Assembly (NCBI GenBank): GCA_036563555.1
Contig: DATCMG010000529.1
Location: forward strand, 1-37,595
Length of the DNA: 37,595 bases
Direction: 5' to 3'
Origin: Roseomonas sp.
GTDB taxonomy: Bacteria > Pseudomonadota > Alphaproteobacteria > Acetobacterales > Acetobacteraceae
The translations under genes and the position numbers were made by a program. Position 1 is the stretch's first letter. Every line of letters begins with the position of its first letter. The notes under the pieces were generated by a model. It had not been told where the DNA came from and searched no databases. It saw only the letters and a list, made by a program, of their open reading frames with translations. Shown here in pieces: positions 3,873 to 31,308 of the stretch.

Positions 3873-4841
3873 TCACAGCCCCACCTTGCCCGCTGCATTG
3901 TCCACGAAGAGGCTTCCCCGTCGGATGTAGCCTCGCAGCACCGGCAGGGACTTGTGACGGCTCTGGTTCTGGATGTGCGCTTCCGGCACGCCGGCCCGCG
4001 CTGCCGTGGTGATGAAGCCGCTGCGCAGGCTGTGGCCGGCATAGGTCTCGGGCGGGTATCCGGCCGCCGCGACAGAGGCCTTCACGACTCGCGCGACATC
4101 CCGATCCGAGAGGCGCGCGGCGCCCAGTCCGCCATGCCGGTTGACGCTGCGGAAGACGGCGCCGGCCTCGATGCCGGCAGCCTTCAACCAAGCGCCCAGC
4201 GTCAGGACGGGGCAGGTCCGCTCGGAGCTGCCGAAGGGGATAGCTATCTCGGTACCCCGGCCTTCCTGGTCCGTCTTCGCACGGCGCAGCGTGAGGATCA
4301 GACCCTCGGGGACGAAGGCGACATCAGCAGCATCCAGCGCCACCAGCTCCGATCGGCGCAGCGCCGCGGCGAAACCGACCAGGAGCAGCGCCCGATCTCT
4401 CAACGGGCGCAGGCCGGGCCGCTTCTCCAGCTTATCCACGGCATCGCGGATCACGGTCGACACCGCCGCGTCCTTCTTCTGCGGCGCCGTACCATGGGTG
4501 CGCCGGATCCCCTTCATCGTCTCGCGGATGGCAGGGTGGCCGGTGTCGATCCGATGGCCGGCGAGACGGTGTGCCTGCCCAATCGCCACCAGGCGCATGG
4601 AGAGAGACGCAGCCTTGTGGGTGCTGGCCCGCGCGGCGAGGAAGGTGCCGACCGTCTCAGGCGAGGCGGGGAGGGCGGTGCGCCCAGCCTCATCGCACCA
4701 GGCAGCGAAGTCTACCCAGGCGGCGCGATAGGCGCGGCGCGTGTTCGCGGCCGAGGCCTCGCGCGCATAGGCCAGCGCCTCGTCCGACATGGCTGGTGCC
4801 GCAGGCATCAGCAAGGCTGACGAGGCCGTCACGAGAGACAT
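3873..4841 (-). CDS. tyrosine recombinase, Cre-like plasmid resolvase
   Basis: ATG 4841 after GGAG; SAM-like N-domain (SAANTRRAYRAAW..F..WC); catalytic RRSEL, AKTDQ, HSLRSG, RHKS, GYIR. Confidence 0.92.
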   Translation of the reverse strand: MSLVTASSALLMPAAPAMSDEALAYAREASAANTRRAYRAAWVDFAAWCDEAGRTALPASPETVGTFLAARASTHKAASLSMRLVAIGQAHRLAGHRIDTGHPAIRETMKGIRRTHGTAPQKKDAAVSTVIRDAVDKLEKRPGLRPLRDRALLLVGFAAALRRSELVALDAADVAFVPEGLILTLRRAKTDQEGRGTEIAIPFGSSERTCPVLTLGAWLKAAGIEAGAVFRSVNRHGGLGAARLSDRDVARVVKASVAAAGYPPETYAGHSLRSGFITTAARAGVPEAHIQNQSRHKSLPVLRGYIRRGSLFVDNAAGKVGL

Positions 4842-4866
4842 GCTGTTGGCTCCGTTTTCGCAGCTA

Positions 4867-5139
4867 TCAGAACTCAAAGCGACTTTGCCGGGGATCATGC
4901 ACCACGCCGCGGCGGCTGCCGGAGGGGGAGCCTTCCATCGTCCTGGGCTTCGCAGGAGGGAGGGAGGGCGCTGGCGTCGGCTCAGGCTCTGGCGCCTCAT
5001 CTTCGGCCGACACGGGGTCATGCAGGAGCTTCGCCGTCCAGGCGCGCCGTTGGGCGACATAGGCGGCTTGCTTCGCCTCCTGCTCCGCAAGCCATTCGGC
5101 GCTTACGGGGACGCGGGCTGGGGGGTCGGGCCGGTCCAT
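4867..5139 (-). CDS. small Pro-rich hypothetical protein, copy 1
   Basis: Clear paralog of 8715-8981 (WLxEQEAKQxAYxAxRRAW...VHDPRQxRFEF); frame conserved in both copies. Confidence 0.7.
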   Translation of the reverse strand: MDRPDPPARVPVSAEWLAEQEAKQAAYVAQRRAWTAKLLHDPVSAEDEAPEPEPTPAPSLPPAKPRTMEGSPSGSRRGVVHDPRQSRFEF

Positions 5140-8714: not shown

Positions 8715-8981
8715 TCAGAACTCAAAGCGCTTTTGCCTTGGATCATGCACCAGTCCGCGTGACCGCCGTGGCGGGGTGCCCTGCATCGTTGTGGGGCTCG
8801 AAGGTGCGCGGGGCGGTGATGGTGATGGATCCGGCGCCTCTTCCTCGTCCGGCACGGTGTCGTGCCCGAGCTTTTGCACCCAGGCACGCCTCTTTGCCGC
8901 ATAGGCTTCCTGCTTCGCCTCCTGCTCAGTAAGCCAGGCGGCGGTCGGTATCGTCGGCAGAGGCCTCTCGTGCTCGTCCAT
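8715..8981 (-). CDS. small Pro-rich hypothetical protein, copy 2
   Basis: Paralog of 4867-5139; shared DNA blocks TCAGAACTCAAAGCG, GGATCATGCACCA, CTTCGCCTCCTGCTC. Confidence 0.7.
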   Translation of the reverse strand: MDEHERPLPTIPTAAWLTEQEAKQEAYAAKRRAWVQKLGHDTVPDEEEAPDPSPSPPRAPSSPTTMQGTPPRRSRGLVHDPRQKRFEF

Positions 8982-10205: not shown

Positions 10206-11129
10206 ATGAGCAATGGTGGCCCCGAGTTTCGTGCCGCATTGACCGCCCTCGGTTTTTCCGAGGCTCGGGCGGAAGCTACCATCCGCTATCTTGGCGAAAA
10301 TGGTGAGGTACTCCGGGGCGGGCGGGGCCGTCGTCGCAAAGACGACCGTGCGTGGGCGGCCAGGGACTATGCCGTCACGATCCTTGGGCTTGGCGCCATC
10401 AAACCGATTGACGCTCCGTCTGTAGCAAGGGCTTTAGGGGAGCTTAGACATACCGCCTCCAGCCTCCACACCACCATTCGGAATGATGTCGGCGAAGTTA
10501 CCGCCATTCAACAGGTTCCGGACCGCATCGTTGATGTGTCTCTTCGGTCTGTGTTGGCGGCGCAAATGGAACTTTTGGCCGAGAATACGACCGAGGAACG
10601 GCAGGTGCTGCGTCAGGCTGCACAGGGTCTCTTCATTCGCCTTGATGCTGACCGTCTTGAGGCTTCTGTCCCCTTCCAGTTTGCAGGCGATGTATGGGGG
10701 TTGGACCAGTTTGGCCCCCCGCAACCCAACCTGCTTCTCCCTGAGCCTCCCCGACTGTCTTGGGGCTTCGAGGTGAAGCTGGAAATTGAGATCGTCTTCA
10801 TTGCTGCCGACCTGCTGGCCGAGACTAGGGCCCAGCGGAACGGCGGCTTACTGCCGCCCAAGGGTGAGGAGCCGACGAGCAACTCCGATCCCAAAGACGG
10901 CGCCCATCATGAATACAACGACGCCTCGGACCCTGGCAGGTCCGAGGCGTCTAGTTGTGCTCGTGATGGTACTACCCAGTCGCACCTTACTCATGCGTCC
11001 AGGCCGTCAGACAGCCTGCATGGTAAGGAAAACGGGAATTTCGCACAATCGCGAATTTCCGTGAGCGGCTGGTCCCCCGAAATCGCTCGTCAGAGGACCA
11101 CCCCGAAATGCCCGCCCTTGATGGCCTGA
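10206..11129 (+). CDS. hypothetical protein, first gene of the replication operon (possible N-terminal DNA-binding domain)
   Basis: 307 aa ORF with upstream promoter; basic GGRGRRRK segment; low-complexity C-terminus overlapping hairpins. Confidence 0.6.
   Translation: MSNGGPEFRAALTALGFSEARAEATIRYLGENGEVLRGGRGRRRKDDRAWAARDYAVTILGLGAIKPIDAPSVARALGELRHTASSLHTTIRNDVGEVTAIQQVPDRIVDVSLRSVLAAQMELLAENTTEERQVLRQAAQGLFIRLDADRLEASVPFQFAGDVWGLDQFGPPQPNLLLPEPPRLSWGFEVKLEIEIVFIAADLLAETRAQRNGGLLPPKGEEPTSNSDPKDGAHHEYNDASDPGRSEASSCARDGTTQSHLTHASRPSDSLHGKENGNFAQSRISVSGWSPEIARQRTTPKCPPLMA
10912..11048 (-). ncRNA. candidate antisense RNA 1 (promoter plus terminator)
   Basis: Minus-strand TTGTGC (11048-11043)-N17-TACCAT (11025-11020); perfect 13-bp hairpin 10920-10951 followed by GTTGTATT. 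Confidence 0.5.
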
Positions 11130-11579: not shown

Positions 11580-12146
11580 ATGCGCTTTTCGTCCCATAAT
11601 AACCGCAGCGGCTATGCACCTCGCCCCGGTGTTGCCTGCCTCGATCAGCCTGGGCAGATCTCCAAGCTGATCGCTGCCCTCGACGGCACCGGCCATGCCT
11701 TTGCCCTGCCACTCTACCGAGCCGCCCTGGCGGGCGAACTGGCAATGGCGGCTCTCCTGCCCGGCGGGCGCGTGCCGACCCGCCTGTTGGACCACACTCG
11801 CCCGCCGACTGTGATCGTGGTCTCGGGCGATCCCGCTAATCCGACCGAAGCAGCCTCCCCTCCCGAGGCGTTCCCCCAGGCGCGTCGCCTGCTGGCTTGG
11901 TCCGCCTCCGTCATGCTCCATGCAACTGGCGGGAAGGAGGCTCATTATCGGGCGGTCGTGGCCGGGGCGAAAGCCTGGCGCCGGGTCCTGCTGATCGAGA
12001 CGGCGACCTCGCAGGAAGATGCATGGCTTGCCTTGGTAGAGGCTGAACGTGAGCGCCGCCTGGCTTCCGGCCGCGTCTTCCCGGCGGTCTGCATCAGCGC
12101 CCGTCCCCGCGGTGGCGTGCATCCCGTGTGGGGGACGCAGGCATGA
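11580..12146 (+). CDS. hypothetical protein
   Basis: RBS GGAGG; 188 aa; ATGA-coupled to the next gene. Confidence 0.7.
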   Translation: MRFSSHNNRSGYAPRPGVACLDQPGQISKLIAALDGTGHAFALPLYRAALAGELAMAALLPGGRVPTRLLDHTRPPTVIVVSGDPANPTEAASPPEAFPQARRLLAWSASVMLHATGGKEAHYRAVVAGAKAWRRVLLIETATSQEDAWLALVEAERERRLASGRVFPAVCISARPRGGVHPVWGTQA

Positions 12147-12328
12147 GCCCCGCCCCTATCCGCCTGACGCTTCTGCCGGACTTGCCGAATGCTGACGGCG
12201 AGCCGCGCGCCGGCTTGGTCCTGCCGCTCCCCCCTAACTCCACCTCCAGGCGCGCTGCCCTCGCGATCTTTCCCAGCGTGACTGCTGCACTGATGGAGAA
12301 GGTGCGACTGGAAGGGGGCGCGGCATGA
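12143..12328 (+). CDS. small hypothetical protein
   Basis: ATGA overlaps at both ends (12143-12146, 12325-12328); ends in GGAA. Confidence 0.65.
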   Translation: MSPAPIRLTLLPDLPNADGEPRAGLVLPLPPNSTSRRAALAIFPSVTAALMEKVRLEGGAA

Positions 12329-12663
12329 GCGGCTTGAGCGCTCCTCCTCCCTTCCGCCCTGTAGGCGATGTTTTAACCGAGGTGGTGCAGCGCGCGGCAG
12401 AAGCGGTGATGGTCGAGCGGGTATCCGTTCGGCCGATCCGTGCCGGGTTCGCCTATGCGTCAATCCGGCTGCGGGACGTGTCTCTCAACGGCATCGAGGC
12501 GACGCGCGATACCTCTGGCCGCGTCACCTTAAAGTGCCCGATGCAGCGCGATCGCCATGGCCGTGAGTGGCCGGTCTTCGCGCTGCAGCCCCGTGCCTTA
12601 GAGGCTGCCACCGCCGCGGTCGCCGCGGTCTGGCCGCCCCCCAATTGCGGGGGCGCCGGTTGA
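12325..12663 (+). CDS. SpoVG-like nucleic-acid-binding protein (possible SSB)
   Basis: Pattern AYASIRLRDVSLNGIEA...VTLKCPMQRDRHGREWPV resembles SpoVG beta-strand order; TTGA-coupled to the primase. Confidence 0.5.
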   Translation: MSGLSAPPPFRPVGDVLTEVVQRAAEAVMVERVSVRPIRAGFAYASIRLRDVSLNGIEATRDTSGRVTLKCPMQRDRHGREWPVFALQPRALEAATAAVAAVWPPPNCGGAG

Positions 12664-15600
12664 CCGAAACCATCACGATCTTCCGGACTACCCCGACCCC
12701 CCAGGGGGCGCCGCGCTACGCCACGAAGCAGTGGATGTGGTCGGCCTCCTCTGGGAGTTGGAGCAAGTTTTCCTACGATGCTGGTGCGCAATTCACGGCC
12801 GAGGAGCGCCAAGTGGCGTGCCTCGTGGATGTGGCTTCGGTGGTGGAGGACAGCCGTCACGACCCCCGCGTTTTTGTCGTGCGCGGCAAACTGCTGCCCG
12901 AGGCGCTCGCGGCTCTGGCGGAAAACCCGCAGTATCGGTTCCGGCGGGCCAAGAAGGTCAGCAAAACCGGCAAGGCGGCGACGCTGGCCGAGGTGGCCCG
13001 TCGCTGGGTGATGATCGACATCGACGGGTATCCCATGCGGGATTCCGCCGATCTCGCCACAGATCCGGAAGAGGTCATCGAAAGCGCTATCCGCGACCTG
13101 CTACCACCCTGCTTCCATGACGCGGCTTGCTTCTGGCAGCTCTCCAGCTCGGCAGGGTTCGTGGCCGGTGTCCTCAAGGTTCACTTGTTCTTCTGGCTCG
13201 CGGAACCGATCAGCAACGAGGACTTCAAGCTCTTCCTGCACGTTCATGCCCCCGGCGTGGACCGCGCTCCCTTCAACGCTGCTCAACCCCATTACATTGC
13301 GGATCCTGTCATTGAAGGTGGCCACGATCCGCTCCCCCGCCGGACAGGCTGGATCAAGGGGCTGGATGATGAGGTGACGCTCCCGGCACTGGACTTGGCC
13401 GCACTGCGGGCAGCCATCCATAAGCGCCGGGAAAAGGTCGCGACCGGCGCCGGCCTCGATCCCTTCGCTGCTCGCACTGTGGCGGGCGCGCTGGCGCTCC
13501 TGGGCGATGGTGAGGGGCGTGAGGGGTGGCACTCTCCGCTGCGCCGGGCCACCCTGCTTTATGCGTACCAGACTTCGCCCAAGAACCGAGACGACGATGC
13601 AGTAAAGGTCGCGTGCCGGGACGCGATCCAGGCTGCGGCAGAGCGCGAGCCGGGGCAGCACGCGGCGGCCGACCTCGCCCGGTTCGGCTCCGACGCTTAC
13701 TTGGATTCTTTGCTCGATGGCGCCTTCGCCTGGATCGATGCCACCAAGCGCGAGATGCCGGAAGGCGTTGTCCCCTATCACGAGGCGCCCGCACACAGCG
13801 TTGAGGACGCGCGCGGCGCCATCACTGGGCAGGTCGGGGATTTCCTGACGGCGGCGACGGCCTGGCACAACCTGCCCGAGGAGAAGCGGATTGATCCGCC
13901 TCAAGTTGGACTTGCGATCGAGGTTGGAGGTGGGAAGTCCACCGTCACCCGGGCCGAGGTAAGCCCCTGGTCCGAGCAGCAGGAAGCGGCGCGACTTCCC
14001 CACCGTGTTCTCTTCGGCGTGCCAACCGTGAAGCTGGGCGGCTTGGCTGAGCAGGCGGAATCGCACTTCGCGGACATGCCTGGCCGGAAGGTGGCCATCC
14101 ATCGCGGGCGCAGTCAGGTCGATCCCAAGAATCCGGATCAGAAAATGTGCGCCGATTTGGATGCCGTGAAGCTGGCGGTCTCGGCCGGAGAAAGTGTCGA
14201 AACCGCTGTGTGCGGCAGCGGCAAGGACGGGAAGCCCTCATGCCCCTTCCGGAAGGGCGAGAACCAATGCGGCTACTACCGCCAGCAGAAGGCGGTTGCC
14301 GAGGCGGATGTGGTGATCGCGGCGCACGAAGCAGTCTTCCATATGCCCGCTGGCGTGAAGAAGAACCTGGGCCTGGTCGTGATGGACGAGGCCTGGTGGC
14401 AAGACGGGGTGAAGACTGGCCGCTTTGTCTTCGTGGATGACCTGATCGACAGCGTGAAAATGTTCCCCGTGCTGAAGCATACGCCGGGCGGGCAGCAGAT
14501 TCCTGACCGGGAGGGAACGGGGGATCTCCTCCAATTCCGCGAGCAATTAGCGCATGTGCTGTCGGCGGCACCGGAGGGGTATCTGCAGGCCAGTGCTCTG
14601 CGCGCAGTCGGGCTGACCGCGGCCGATTGCGCTGCGGCAGCCGGACTGGAGTGGAAGCGCAAGCGGGAGAAACTGATGCGCCCGGGCATGTCGCCCGAGG
14701 ACCGCCGCGCTGCAGCCGCGGAGGCCGGCATCAACGCGCAGATCGTCCGCCTCGCGGGCATGTGGTCGACCCTGGAGGAGTTGCTGGCAAGCGGGGCGGA
14801 GGCCACCGGCCGTGCCGAGATGGCGTGGCAGCAGGACCGTGAAGGGAAAGACCGCTGGGCCATCTGCCTCAACACCTTGGACAAGGTGGTGGCGCCTGTC
14901 CTGGGCGTGCCGGTGCTGCTGCTGGACGCAACAATGCCAACGGGTCTCGTGCGGGCCTATCTGCCACGCCTTGAGGCAGCTCCTCCGGTGCGGGTGAAGG
15001 CTCCTTTTATGGAGGTGCGCCAGGTCCGCGGCGGCTGGGGGAAGACCACGCTCCTGCCTGGGCGGATCACGATCAAACTGGACGAGCACGCGCAACCCAA
15101 GGCCTACGCGCCCGGGGATACGACACCCCGCCCCCTGCCCTCCACGCTGGCCGAGTTGCGGGATTTTGTGGCGGGAGAGACCCGTGGCGAGCCCGCCCTC
15201 GTCGTCACCTACCAGGACGCCGAAGCCGCCTTCGCTGGGCTGTCAGGGGTGGAGACGGCACACTTCAACGACGTCGCCGGTAAGGATGGGTGGAAGGATG
15301 TCCGGTATCTTTTCGTCATCGGCCGTCCCCGCCCCCGTTCCGACCAGGTGCGGGTGCTGGCAGCCGCCCTGACGGGTGAGCCGGTCGAAGTCGCGGAGAG
15401 CCACAAGGAAACGCGCGGCGTCCGGCTGGTGGACGGGAAAAGCGGCACTGTCGAGGTCCGCGCTTATGCCAACCCGGCCGCTGAGGCGGTGTCCGCCGCC
15501 ATCACCGACGCCGAGGTGATCCAGGCGATCGGCCGCGCCAGGGGCATCAACCGCACCGCGTTCAACCCTGTCCGGGTCTGGATCCTGGCGGACGTGGTGA

Positions 15601-16289
15601 CACCCTTGATCGTGGATGAGCTGCTGGATTGGCGCGATATCGCCCCTTCGGTGGTGGAGCGGATGGCCTGCCGGGGGATCTTCCTGACGAGCCCAGCTGA
15701 TGCCGCCAAGGCTTACTCCGACCTGTTCCCGACTATTGAAGCCGCGAAGAAGGCGCTGCAGCGGGGAGGAGTCGCTAAGGCCGATTTCGGGGACAATCCC
15801 CTAAGAATATCTCTTCTTAGGAGAATGTCCCCGAAATCCCCTCTGAGGTTCACCTACCGCCCCCCTGGAAGGGGACAGCAGACGCGCCAGGGCTGGGCGC
15901 GGCCCGAGATGGATCCGGAGGATGTCTGGCGCTTCCTGGAAGATCACCTGGGAGAGATGGCCGTCTTCACCCCGGAGGAACCGGAGCCTGAGCCTCCTGA
16001 GCCGCCCCAGCCGCCGGGAGGGCAGCCCTGCCCCTCTGACGAACCGCCGGAAGGGTCACCAGAGCCTGCTGAGGCGCCTGGAGGGGTCGGGAGCCCTGTC
16101 GGGGTGCCGATCCGGGTGCCAGCGGGCTCCGTGGTGCTGGATGAGGCTGAGTTCGAGCCGGCGGGCGGGTTCTGTGCGGTCCCGGGTGGGGTGCCCTTGG
16201 GCCGGTTCCCGGAGGATCCCCCGGTCACGCTGCGACCACACAACACGCCCAAATCAGAGGGATTCAACGAACGTCATGCGTGGAAATAG
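12660..16289 (+). CDS. AEP primase fused to SF2 (DinG/XPD-like) helicase; putative replication protein
   Basis: AEP motifs WVMIDIDG, SSS...KVHLFFWL, VDRAPF; helicase GGGKST, VVMDE, LLLDAT, QAIGRAR; four Cys (KMC, AVC, SCPF, QCGY) between motifs I and II; TTG start coupled to the upstream stop. Confidence 0.8.
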   Translation: MTETITIFRTTPTPQGAPRYATKQWMWSASSGSWSKFSYDAGAQFTAEERQVACLVDVASVVEDSRHDPRVFVVRGKLLPEALAALAENPQYRFRRAKKVSKTGKAATLAEVARRWVMIDIDGYPMRDSADLATDPEEVIESAIRDLLPPCFHDAACFWQLSSSAGFVAGVLKVHLFFWLAEPISNEDFKLFLHVHAPGVDRAPFNAAQPHYIADPVIEGGHDPLPRRTGWIKGLDDEVTLPALDLAALRAAIHKRREKVATGAGLDPFAARTVAGALALLGDGEGREGWHSPLRRATLLYAYQTSPKNRDDDAVKVACRDAIQAAAEREPGQHAAADLARFGSDAYLDSLLDGAFAWIDATKREMPEGVVPYHEAPAHSVEDARGAITGQVGDFLTAATAWHNLPEEKRIDPPQVGLAIEVGGGKSTVTRAEVSPWSEQQEAARLPHRVLFGVPTVKLGGLAEQAESHFADMPGRKVAIHRGRSQVDPKNPDQKMCADLDAVKLAVSAGESVETAVCGSGKDGKPSCPFRKGENQCGYYRQQKAVAEADVVIAAHEAVFHMPAGVKKNLGLVVMDEAWWQDGVKTGRFVFVDDLIDSVKMFPVLKHTPGGQQIPDREGTGDLLQFREQLAHVLSAAPEGYLQASALRAVGLTAADCAAAAGLEWKRKREKLMRPGMSPEDRRAAAAEAGINAQIVRLAGMWSTLEELLASGAEATGRAEMAWQQDREGKDRWAICLNTLDKVVAPVLGVPVLLLDATMPTGLVRAYLPRLEAAPPVRVKAPFMEVRQVRGGWGKTTLLPGRITIKLDEHAQPKAYAPGDTTPRPLPSTLAELRDFVAGETRGEPALVVTYQDAEAAFAGLSGVETAHFNDVAGKDGWKDVRYLFVIGRPRPRSDQVRVLAAALTGEPVEVAESHKETRGVRLVDGKSGTVEVRAYANPAAEAVSAAITDAEVIQAIGRARGINRTAFNPVRVWILADVVTPLIVDELLDWRDIAPSVVERMACRGIFLTSPADAAKAYSDLFPTIEAAKKALQRGGVAKADFGDNPLRISLLRRMSPKSPLRFTYRPPGRGQQTRQGWARPEMDPEDVWRFLEDHLGEMAVFTPEEPEPEPPEPPQPPGGQPCPSDEPPEGSPEPAEAPGGVGSPVGVPIRVPAGSVVLDEAEFEPAGGFCAVPGGVPLGRFPEDPPVTLRPHNTPKSEGFNERHAWK
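15783..15838. repeat. long inverted repeat inside the rep gene (origin candidate)
   Basis: GATTTCGGGGACAATCCCCTAAGAA-TATCTC-TTCTTAGGAGAATGTCCCCGAAATC; 23/25 match; AT-rich centre. Confidence 0.8.
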
Positions 16290-16542
16290 CAGGGCGGCGG
16301 AGGATTCTCGCCTGGAGCAGCAGCGGCTACGGGCCGAGCAATATCGCGAGCGGCGCCGTCGCGGGGCCGTCCTCGTCCCTGTCGAGGTCGAGCGGCGCGA
16401 CCTGGCCGCCTTGGAGGGCCTGGGAATGTTGGATCCGGGAGAGCGCGATCCGCAGGCGATTGCGGCGGCCGTGAACCGCTTTCTCGCCGGAGCTGGGGCG
16501 GTTGCGGCACTGGGGGATGTGTGGTGGCCGGTGGCAGAGTAA
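16276..16542 (+). CDS. small basic hypothetical protein (possible DNA-binding)
   Basis: RBS AGAGGGA; RxEQYRERRRRGAVLVPVEV...AIAAAVNRFL. Confidence 0.6.
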   Translation: MRGNSRAAEDSRLEQQRLRAEQYRERRRRGAVLVPVEVERRDLAALEGLGMLDPGERDPQAIAAAVNRFLAGAGAVAALGDVWWPVAE

Positions 16543-16563
16543 GGGGCGTGGAGCTTGCCCATC

Positions 16564-16929
16564 ATGGTTAAGCCCGATGCCGTACCTGCCAACGTCCTCA
16601 TGCCGACTGGCCGAAACTTGCCCAGTGGATGGGCAGCCTTCATTGCGCTGCGCCGACCGGTTGAGGAACCGGCGCCGCGCCGGCATGGCAACACGATCCA
16701 TGGGCGCTACAGTCGCGAGGGGATCGCTACCCGGCGCCAACATAGAGTTCTGTGGCAATGGCTGCGGGACGGCTGCCGAGGCCCCTCACCGCTGCCGCGG
16801 CCGATTGGCTGGAGAGGCTTTCGCGGCACCTTCCGCGCGCGCGCGAGGCCAGGGCGAGAACCTTGGCTGAGACTGAGGCCGACCAGGGCCAGGGCTGGCA
16901 CGAGCCGCCGCGGCCTCGGCGGGACCTGA
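16564..16929 (+). CDS. protein with HGGxSTG-family C-terminal motif
   Basis: HGNTIHGRYSREGIATRR resembles the GNxNxxKHGxYxxE tail of HGGxSTG proteins found beside terminases; Cys/HGG core absent. Confidence 0.4.
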   Translation: MVKPDAVPANVLMPTGRNLPSGWAAFIALRRPVEEPAPRRHGNTIHGRYSREGIATRRQHRVLWQWLRDGCRGPSPLPRPIGWRGFRGTFRARARPGREPWLRLRPTRARAGTSRRGLGGT

Positions 16930-17297
16930 TCGGGCGACCATCGTCTTTCTCGCCCGAAATGGAAGCGCGCATCGTGGACAGGCTGGCAGACGGGGTGCCA
17001 CTGGCCAGGATGTGCCGGGAACCGGGGATGCCGGATCCTGAGACCGTGCGGCGCTGGCGGCGCTCTAACCCCAGCTTTGATGCCCTGTTCCACGTCGCCC
17101 AGGTCGAGGGGTGGCGCGAACTGGCGCAGCGGGTCGTGGAGGACGTGGAGGCGGCGCTGGCGGCCGGCGCATCGGTAGAGCGGGCGCGATTGATGTTCGA
17201 TGCGCGGCGATGGCTGTTAGCGCGCCAGGCGCCGGAGTTTTTCGGGTCCGGGCGGGCGCGGCGTCGCCGCCAGCGGGAGATGGATCGCTCAGCCTGA
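16758..17297 (+). CDS. terS: phage terminase small subunit-like protein (Sf6-type)
   Basis: GRPSSFSPEMEARIVDRLADGVPLARMCREPGMPDPETVRRW...F...ARLMFDARRWLLARQAPEFFG. Confidence 0.8.
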   Translation: MAAGRLPRPLTAAAADWLERLSRHLPRAREARARTLAETEADQGQGWHEPPRPRRDLIGRPSSFSPEMEARIVDRLADGVPLARMCREPGMPDPETVRRWRRSNPSFDALFHVAQVEGWRELAQRVVEDVEAALAAGASVERARLMFDARRWLLARQAPEFFGSGRARRRRQREMDRSA

Positions 17298-22760: not shown

Positions 22761-23423
22761 ATGGGAAAGATACTGGTTTCAGGCGGAATCAAGGGGGGGA
22801 TCGGCAAGTCCACCCTGGCGGCGAACCTGGCGGTTCTAGCGGCGCGTGTCGGCAAGGAAGTGCTGCTGGTGGATGCGGACCCGCAGGAGACCACTGCTAC
22901 CTGGGCGGCAGCCCGTGGTGAGCAGCCGGGGGAGCTGGCGCCGGTCACAACCGTGACCATTGTCGGTAAGCAGATCCGGGAAGAGCTGAAGCGCCTAGCC
23001 GACAAGTACGATGTGGTGATCGTGGATGCGGGGGCCCGGGACACCAGCACCCAGCGCGCGGCCCTCTCCGTCGCTAACCTAGTCTTGCTCCCCTTCCCTC
23101 CCCGCGGGCCGGACCTCTGGACCTTGGACGCTGTGGCCCAGACAGTCAGCGATATCCGCACCATCAACGAGGGGCTACGGGCTGTGGCCTTCGTAAACCG
23201 GGCGGACCCGATCGGCAGTGACAATGCCGAAGCGGAAGCAGCCTTTGCAGAGCATGCTGAGGTAATCGAGGCGGCCCCAATACGGGTCGGAAACCGGAAG
23301 GGGATCGCCACCAGCCACTTGATGGGGCTGGCAGCCTGCGAGGCCCAACGCCCGGACGGCAAGGCCGTAGCGGAGTTAGATGCACTCTTTCGGTATGCCT
23401 TTGATACCACCAATGCACCGTAG
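22761..23423 (+). CDS. parA: ParA family partition ATPase (short, type Ib)
   Basis: Deviant Walker A KGGIGKST; LLVDADPQ; YDVVIVDAG; no N-terminal HTH. Confidence 0.92.
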   Translation: MGKILVSGGIKGGIGKSTLAANLAVLAARVGKEVLLVDADPQETTATWAAARGEQPGELAPVTTVTIVGKQIREELKRLADKYDVVIVDAGARDTSTQRAALSVANLVLLPFPPRGPDLWTLDAVAQTVSDIRTINEGLRAVAFVNRADPIGSDNAEAEAAFAEHAEVIEAAPIRVGNRKGIATSHLMGLAACEAQRPDGKAVAELDALFRYAFDTTNAP

Positions 23424-30782: not shown

Positions 30783-31280
30783 ATGTTCGGGCATTCCCGC
30801 CGGCGGCCCTATACGCCGCCTTCACCCCCGCCCTCTCCAGAGCCGGCCCGCTGGCTCTCCCTGGACCAGGCGGCCCAATACGTCTCCCTCAGCCAAGTAG
30901 CCTTCAAGCGTTTCGCTCAAGAGGGGCAATTGCCCGCGGCCGTCGAGGGCGGAGAAACCCGCGATCCCAAGTGGGACCGCCTCGCGATCGATGCCGCGAT
31001 GGAGAGCGGATACCAGACCGAGCCACCCCAGCCGAAACCCCGCCCCGCTGGGTTCGGCTTCCAGAAGAAGCCCCGGGAGGTCCGCCTCCCTGAGTGGCCA
31101 CGCGGCATGCCAGCCGAGATAGCGGCGGCCTATGTGGGCCTGCCCCTGGAGGCCTGGAACGGCATTGTGGCCGCTGGTGATGCGCCGGCCCCGGTGGCTC
31201 TGACGCCCGAGCATCGCGTCTGGCTCCGCGAGACGCTGGATGCTTGGCTGGATCAGAAGACGGCCAGGGGCGCTCCCTAG
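30783..31280 (+). CDS. tandem double excisionase/AlpA-like wHTH protein
   Basis: Two units: WLSLDQAAQYVSLS...GQLP...WDRLAID and PRGMPAEIAAAYVGLP...GDAPAP...VWLRETLDAWLD. Confidence 0.75.
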   Translation: MFGHSRRRPYTPPSPPPSPEPARWLSLDQAAQYVSLSQVAFKRFAQEGQLPAAVEGGETRDPKWDRLAIDAAMESGYQTEPPQPKPRPAGFGFQKKPREVRLPEWPRGMPAEIAAAYVGLPLEAWNGIVAAGDAPAPVALTPEHRVWLRETLDAWLDQKTARGAP

Positions 31281-31308
31281 GGGTCCGCTCACTGTGCGGA
31301 CCCCTAGG
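31276..31308. terminator. hairpin between convergent genes
   Basis: 13-bp perfect stem CCTAGGGGTCCGC / GCGGACCCCTAGG; no U tract. Confidence 0.55.

Follow-up and report, generated by a model that had tools for sequence, protein, structure and literature searches.

An origin of replication residing within the gene of its own initiator is already known (N15 repA and repC being cases in point), and the closest described systems each resemble some portion of the locus presented below. RepA of N15 and PY54 is one protein carrying both a primase and an SF2 helicase (PMC4889955), and N15 replication begins within the repA gene (PMC2847241); P4 alpha, the D5-type proteins and ORF904 of pRN1 comprise a primase, a helicase and then a C-terminal origin-binding winged helix (PMC4889955, PMC4234260), the primase of ORF904 being of the AEP type and its inverted-repeat origin lying near the 3' end of the gene. 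RepC of the repABC replicons has its oriV inside the initiator coding sequence, with an A+T-rich region and no DnaA box (PMC3155836), and CyRepA/CyRepX are large cyanobacterial plasmid Reps with a DExD-type helicase domain (PMC10899382).

The locus in question, a primase-helicase gene with a palindrome embedded in it, lies on a Roseomonas sp. contig of 37.6 kb (37,595 nucleotides), the whole of which was analyzed and is hereafter called the window (Table 1); no terminal overlap of the contig that would point to a circle was found. What the encoded protein has in common with N15/PY54 RepA is the fusion of a primase to an SF2 helicase, but no homology between them was found (HMM scores near zero, hhalign probability 0.2), its helicase is DinG/XPD-like, its primase is not of the DnaG type of N15 (though relatives of the protein have Toprim versions), and the N15 and PY54 repA genes contain no comparable palindrome (symmetry below 15/24 by the score used below). 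The helicases of P4 alpha, D5 and ORF904 are hexameric SF3 enzymes, whereas the one encoded in the window is SF2 DinG/XPD; likewise, P4 uses iterons and in pRN1 a stem-loop follows the gene at a distance of 54 bp, whereas the window site lies inside the coding sequence of the predicted binding domain, and the features of a pRN-type stem-loop are absent from it, as it is located in the gene, is unpaired in the middle of the stem and has a sequence that follows the helix. RepC and the window are alike in having an AT-rich site in the gene and no DnaA box, but the text of the RepC paper (PMC3155836) mentions no palindrome or inverted repeat. Neither a repAB operon nor a match to the RepC family (Pfam, NCBIfam) is present in the window. 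To our knowledge, RepC is not a primase-helicase, and CyRepA1 of pSYSA showed no HMM match to the window protein (itself without an NCBIfam match) and no such palindrome.

Table 1. Coordinates of the features discussed (window positions unless a locus is named).
Feature	Position	Strand	Basis or remark
Primase-helicase-winged-helix gene	12660..16289	+	Frame open from 12567; TTG at 12660 likely start, overlaps upstream stop
Primase-like N-terminal domain	12660..13760	+	DxD 13011-13028, His 13173-13187; phrog_16950 match, Xfas53 primase 32%
DinG/XPD-like SF2 helicase	13800..15650	+	Walker A 13926-13940, DEAW 14385-14399, four invariant Cys
C-terminal domain, winged-helix element order	15651..15974	+	Models; fold match weak (best Z 3.5)
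Predicted recognition helix IEAAKKALQR	15735..15764	+	Model, covariation; K979-K980 codons 15747-15752
Imperfect palindrome, 56 bp, candidate origin: two inverted half-sites with AT-rich centre between	15783..15838	.	Sequence, fold, 106/111 homologues
Left variable box GGGGACA, positions -13..-7; covaries with helix	15789..15795	+	Symmetry profile, covariation
Left spacer, positions -6..-3; mirror 15822-15825	15796..15799	+	Both repeat mismatches here; homologue symmetry drops
Near-constant inner CCTA/TAGG motifs and AT-rich centre	15800..15821	.	Homologue alignment, AT content
Right variable box GGGGACA	15826..15832	-	Symmetry profile, covariation
Predicted wing hairpin; tip covaries weakly with outer 3 bp of arms	15849..15896	+	Model; phi 0.27
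Terminase small subunit-like gene, downstream	16752..17297	+	
ParA-like gene, then small ORF; plasmid-type backbone	22761..23423	+	
Tyrosine recombinase	3873..5090	-	Similar DNA in contigs of two relatives
Second palindrome copies	L229:12996-13056 (G263); L225:1190-1260; L230 near 6385 (G224); L231 near 1705 (G172)		

The N-terminus of the protein matches PHROG family phrog_16950 (DNA primase) at E 7.5e-30, and the primase part alone finds matches in the phage collection (Table 1), those of the C-terminal part being at chance level only. No Pfam match was found for the primase part, and its AEP assignment has the PHROG match and residues D69, D71 and H124 (numbering of the window's protein) behind it, the latter being invariant in 43/43 aligned proteins and making up, together, a DxD plus His arrangement that we take to be the AEP-type primase motifs. 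In an AlphaFold model of the full protein (pLDDT 82.5), residues 330-945 match DinG/XPD helicases (Foldseek, DinG 6fwr, E 4.7e-13; VIA structure comparison with CasDinG, Z 18.0, rmsd 7.2, 410 aligned), the helicase shows the SF2 fold with motifs I, II and VI, as DinG/XPD do, and four cysteines invariant in 43/43 sequences suggest a possible Fe-S cluster. The primase match and the DinG/XPD fold both agree with the primase-helicase call of the original prediction, which was made from the DNA letters. Pfam and NCBIfam hold no family for the whole protein, whose nearest named relatives come from Roseomonas, Muricoccus and Belnapia, and a protein atlas returned unnamed clusters scoring below 0.9, treated as a lead only. 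The fused primase is exchangeable among relatives, being AEP-like in the window and Toprim or Prim-Pol elsewhere.

The repeat has two arms of 25 nt each (15783-15807 and 15814-15838), which pair at 23/25 positions (92% complementary) across a gap of 6 nt, and each arm is made up, going inwards, of an outer 3 bp, a variable box, an unconstrained spacer of 3-4 bp and a constant CTA, with an AT-rich centre between the arms. Its DNA fold (-21.8 kcal/mol, z -6.3, with 0/200 shuffles as good) makes it the window's best hairpin and one that ties with three others for the top hairpin score (19) in the 4.73-Mb assembly, within which it alone reaches 22 on a 24-position symmetry score; 15 of its central 24 bp are A/T (top 0.6% of the contig). 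The coordinates, fold and symmetry score confirm what had been predicted (a 23/25 repeat with a 6-nt loop and an AT-rich centre, placed within the gene), and the palindrome is in frame within the ORF 12567/12660-16289, encoding the peptide DFGDNPLRISLLRRMSPKS. A Logan contig from run X1 covers 12000-16544 with zero differences, its sample being possibly identical, hence serving as an assembly check only; no RNA run was listed among those containing the locus. No further half-site copy was found in a genome-wide search; a promoter- or terminator-like site and a DnaA or IHF box were likewise looked for here and not found. Two perfect 13-bp inverted repeats with loops of 6-7 nt are also seen in the window at 10920-10951 and 31276-31308.

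From 190 loci, 133 ORFs spanning the C-terminal profile were taken, 111 of which were distinct, and a symmetry score of at least 17/24 was reached at the same place in 106/111 of these homologues (genome background: 0.0085 such sites per 100 bp), meaning that the palindrome is kept despite sequence drift, which was the check put forward along with the original prediction. In the stretch from the DLF to the YRP motif, the top hairpin had a score of at least 10 in 92/111 and of at least 14 in 48/111, the respective counts for the remainder of the same 111 ORFs being 17 and 0, and the palindrome was the top hairpin of the entire ORF in 93/111. Since the arms are read in 8/9 reading-frame combinations across the homologues, it is the peptide that follows the DNA; these eight combinations, along with the low modelling confidence of the encoded loop, speak for the earlier claim that the DNA constrains the peptide. 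Five of the 111 (L014, L091, L022, L024 and L028) have no palindrome in the loop, with the helix region present; they may have the site elsewhere or be inactive genes, and were left out of the covariation counts. Of 16 plasmid records with a matching gene, 14 were examined, and 11/14 of their genes reach a symmetry of 17 at the same place, the Microvirga/Agrobacterium plasmids (L199, L200, L203) having a degenerate palindrome (symmetry 15-16 only). In these three, helicase and C-terminal domain are encoded but no primase is fused to them, and an unnamed gene of 280-345 aa lies downstream. A 22-kb plasmid labelled Bacillus safensis (L197, NZ_CP015609.1) contains a Roseomonas-type gene (49-59% identity) with a KK palindrome, the record being possibly mislabelled. 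DNA scans with a CCTA-type pattern gave 0 matches in viral contigs and the window's own genome alone among 401 of the class, while a looser pattern hit 11/401 family genomes, a count that is uninformative by itself because a reversed control gave a similar number.

A model of the C-terminal domain built from 92 sequences (pLDDT 84.3) shows the order helix, strand, helix, helix, loop, beta-hairpin, which is that of a winged helix, and its best fold match, to an extended winged helix, is weak (Z 3.5, rmsd 5.3, 86 aligned), as are those to other winged helices (Z 2.5-3.1); Foldseek found nothing for this model at E<=0.001, and the 92 domains gave single weak HTH/NUMOD1 matches only in Pfam/NCBIfam. 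A profile search with the domain yielded 1,726 clusters at 50% identity. The palindrome encodes residues 990-1007, i.e., the loop between helix 3 and the wing (pLDDT <50 in the full model), and the codons of K979-K980 lie 31-36 bases upstream of it; the residues that covary with the DNA are predicted to fall on one face of helix 3, with the flexible palindrome-coded loop behind it.

A dipeptide of this helix predicts the box present in the arms: KK goes with GGGACA, RQ with GTGAC, RK with CCGGAC and RM with CCGAA. Of the rows in which helix and arm are both scored (101), 39 combine KK with a right-arm GGGA, 59 have neither, and 3 are discordant. A FastTree phylogeny computed from the helicase part alone (105 rows, with several long branches) shows helix residues and both arms switching jointly in the sister pairs L107/L108, L125/L127, L008/L012 and L076/L089, and 18 independent pairs gave a mean of 17.6 in the same direction and 0 in the opposite one (p 7.6e-6), the removal of the largest cluster leaving 12 independent pairs (p 5e-4). 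When 16 helicase clusters (<50% identity) are compared, the same dipeptide comes with the same box in 39/52 cases vs 20/463 otherwise, and with KK omitted the between-cluster figures are 3/7 vs 4/241 (permutation p 0.0016). As a control for linkage, 136 dipeptide positions were scanned with the palindrome-coded loop excluded, and K979-K980 ranked first (phi 0.67, the median being 0.01); the top single residues (979, 980, 976, 983, 984) follow an i, i+3, i+4, i+7, i+8 pattern, that is, one helix face, and the wing tip covaries weakly (phi 0.27) with the outer 3 bp of the arms. Helix and site being physically linked, their switches in close relatives may each represent a single recombination event. 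Plasmid genes fetched later whose helix is of known type fit the code as well (GGGACA alongside KK in L197 and in the Skermanella gene L201, GTGAC alongside RQ in the Methylobacterium gene L196), with L193-L195, L198 and L202 having new helix types that are uninformative for it, and a DNA-only scan of viral contigs, most of which were already in the homologue set, gave 20 matches, 19 of them in the helix-wing loop, with 18/18 of those with a visible helix being concordant. The code is not strict, as RK is found with CCGGA in one cluster and with GTGTGA in another, and KK-GGGA may be its ancestral state. Two homologues, L052 and L097, are hybrids, with an RQ helix, the cognate GTGTGA in the left arm and a non-cognate GGGGA in the right one, which suggests a crossover in the AT-rich centre. 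Taken as a pattern in aligned sequences, the covariation lends support to the earlier claim that the repeat may be recognized by the C-terminal region of the very protein it helps to encode.

Judging from this covariation, the candidate half-sites are very probably bound by the protein's own C-terminal domain and, since the helix and its DNA vary in concert among relatives, a binding site of the protein's own that is also the replication start seems likely; initiation is what we infer from the domain content, the AT-rich centre, the single occurrence of the site and the absence of any other known Rep. The reading that we consider probable is, thus, that the palindrome represents an in-gene replication origin, the half-sites of which would be bound as double-stranded DNA by the predicted winged helix of its own gene product. 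Two protein molecules would sit head to head on the half-sites, helix 3 of each reading the variable box, and would open the AT-rich centre (15800-15821, the likely melting region), whereupon the DinG/XPD-like helicase domains would be loaded outward, in opposite directions, and the fused primase would prime synthesis. As the helix and both half-sites fit within ~100 bases, a short recombination could swap reader and site together and, in so doing, give rise to a new specificity group.

Covariation shows binding at most, not initiation, and the bound site might instead be a control element (a roadblock to the transcription of its own gene, or one for copy number/incompatibility), with replication starting elsewhere; a site within a transcribed gene could indeed block RNA polymerase, and a second copy that four elements have before a terminase-like gene could play a regulatory part. 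This second palindrome, non-coding and equipped with the cognate box, lies 1.6-2.1 kb downstream of the gene in two KK/KR and two RQ elements of one subgroup, the boxes being GGGGGACA with KK/KR (G263, L224/L225) and GTGTGAG/C with RQ (G224, G172); it was seen in only two loci of the first set, in which 59/106 had 2 kb of downstream DNA. In G263 it is flanked by a DUF6456 gene on one side and, on the other, by an HTH gene similar to small terminase subunits, and such copies may serve as a second origin part or a packaging link. A purely regulatory role is nevertheless unlikely in our opinion, as every cluster retains the AT-rich centre and the protein reading the site also has helicase and primase domains; moreover, because the genome has no pair of half-sites besides the palindrome, the window's element is without a further cognate site that could act as its origin.

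Whether an origin of this sort would act as duplex DNA or as an extruded hairpin/cruciform, like the pRN1 stem-loop, with pairing outweighing sequence, is a matter on which the anatomy of the arms bears. Arm symmetry across the homologues is 92-99% at -17..-7 (76% at -14) and 97-99% at -1..+1, but at the spacer positions -6..-4 it falls to 28-40%, i.e., chance level, with mostly transversions among the mismatches, and the two mismatches of the window's repeat are at spacer positions -6 and -3. With the 16 clusters equally weighted the dip is shallower (61, 53 and 37% at -6..-4; 84-99% in the outer part except at -14). The centre averages 77% AT vs 32% for the ORFs, the mismatches on the sense strand show no G-U preference (weighted G-U 7.5, A-C 13.4, transversion 30), and this arm anatomy seems to fit two inverted double-stranded half-sites better than a stem. 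A hairpin origin would agree with the stable fold (z -6.3), with both arms changing together across homologues and with the pRN1 precedent, where an intact stem-loop is required (PMC4234260), but we hold it to be improbable: pairing is lost at three to four positions in the middle of the stem while both their flanks are symmetric, the arm sequence follows protein residues, as base reading predicts, and extra half-sites in direct orientation occur in L049 and L058. The cruciform offered in the original prediction as the other option is thereby its weaker half, the mid-arm positions not being kept paired, and it is possible that a hairpin forms after melting. In L049 and L058 the additional half-site is 43 bp upstream of the left arm, in an iteron-like arrangement, and the coded loop is ~25 residues longer.

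As for the element itself, the contig also carries a RelE-type pair, cargo genes and a terminal transposase; of the PICI/satellite features, a rep and a terminase small subunit are present in the window, in which neither a tRNA nor an adjacent integrase was found, the ParA and toxin-antitoxin genes being, for their part, indicative of a plasmid. Plasmids of 18-39 kb with the gene have much of the backbone in common with the window. Six small plasmids that are annotated and bear the gene have no replicon type, and among 71 proteins selected from four of these six there was no match to a Pfam Rep family, the unnamed proteins remaining initiator candidates. The pCMU02 version of the gene is without the primase part, and other relatives adjoin recombinase, methylase and terminase genes in prophage-like elements. 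GC-skew minima are within 10% of the site in 6/8 replicons (L193 and L194 being the exceptions), a placement that is suggestive but confounded by the coding strand. Elements with ParA keep a gene for a small terminase subunit or a head-protease-like protein beside rep (window 16752-17297; L191:20802-21569; L192:7280-8047; L193:11509-12120), so possibly being satellite plasmids exploiting helper phages. In the window, the rep gene is preceded by unnamed ORFs at 10206-11129, 11580-12146 and 12325-12663, the latter two of which, with homologues in seven and six loci, respectively, look like conserved accessory genes, and a direct repeat of ~230 bp (72-75%) at 4867-5101 and 8715-8943, the copies 3.84 kb apart, overlaps the tyrosine recombinase start.

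With ParA, a small terminase subunit and a tyrosine recombinase for neighbours, the palindrome could also be imagined as the site of another protein (a partition centromere, a terminase packaging site, or a recombinase or protelomerase target), all the more so as N15 has a centromere within repA (PMC2847241) and its telRL is likewise 56 bp; this is, however, very improbable, since the box tracks the protein's own helix while the neighbours differ (plasmid backbones vs recombinase-methylase-terminase modules), the centre is not a perfect palindrome and a scan of window ORFs gave no protelomerase match. Readings as a hairpin of the mRNA, as the insertion of a palindromic repeat element or as a neutral palindrome whose symmetry is maintained by template switching are scarcely credible, in spite of the strong predicted fold and a disordered loop that tolerates insertions, given the absence of a G-U preference on the sense strand and of a terminator- or promoter-like site, the single copy in the genome, and that neutral homogenizing would neither spare the spacer nor follow the helix. 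A telomere-resolution site, an RNA hairpin and a repeat-element insertion were dropped on the grounds just given.

The family of mobile elements carrying this in-gene palindrome is apparently undescribed: within the full-text literature covered (PMC3832669, PMC10612081 and bioRxiv 10.1101/2024.09.03.610885 included), outside which most subscription journals fall and beyond which supplements to plasmid-typing surveys might list the family, there is no description of the gene family, of an origin situated within the loop of the domain that reads it, or of the recognition code. Going beyond the single site, we lean slightly towards a wider proposition, namely that these elements are widespread, unrecognized, self-contained replicons, in which a DinG/XPD-type Fe-S helicase would act as both initiator and replicative helicase, the origin would be located in the loop of its own reader, a swappable cassette of ~100 bp would give new incompatibility groups, and the code would be readable from sequence (KK-GGGACA, RQ-GTGAC, RK-CCGGAC, RM-CCGAA, and K-x-x-E/D/S-H with C-rich boxes). 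If true, this would name the initiator and origin of alphaproteobacterial plasmids that are as yet untyped and of many prophage-like elements, and would provide a natural recognition code for a winged helix, by which a KK to RQ change would shift the preference from GGGGACA to GTGTGACA. Orthogonal one-gene replicons of this kind would be useful as vectors for harmless alphaproteobacteria, and reader and site would be able to diverge jointly without a non-functional step, which is the usual puzzle of how new incompatibility groups arise.
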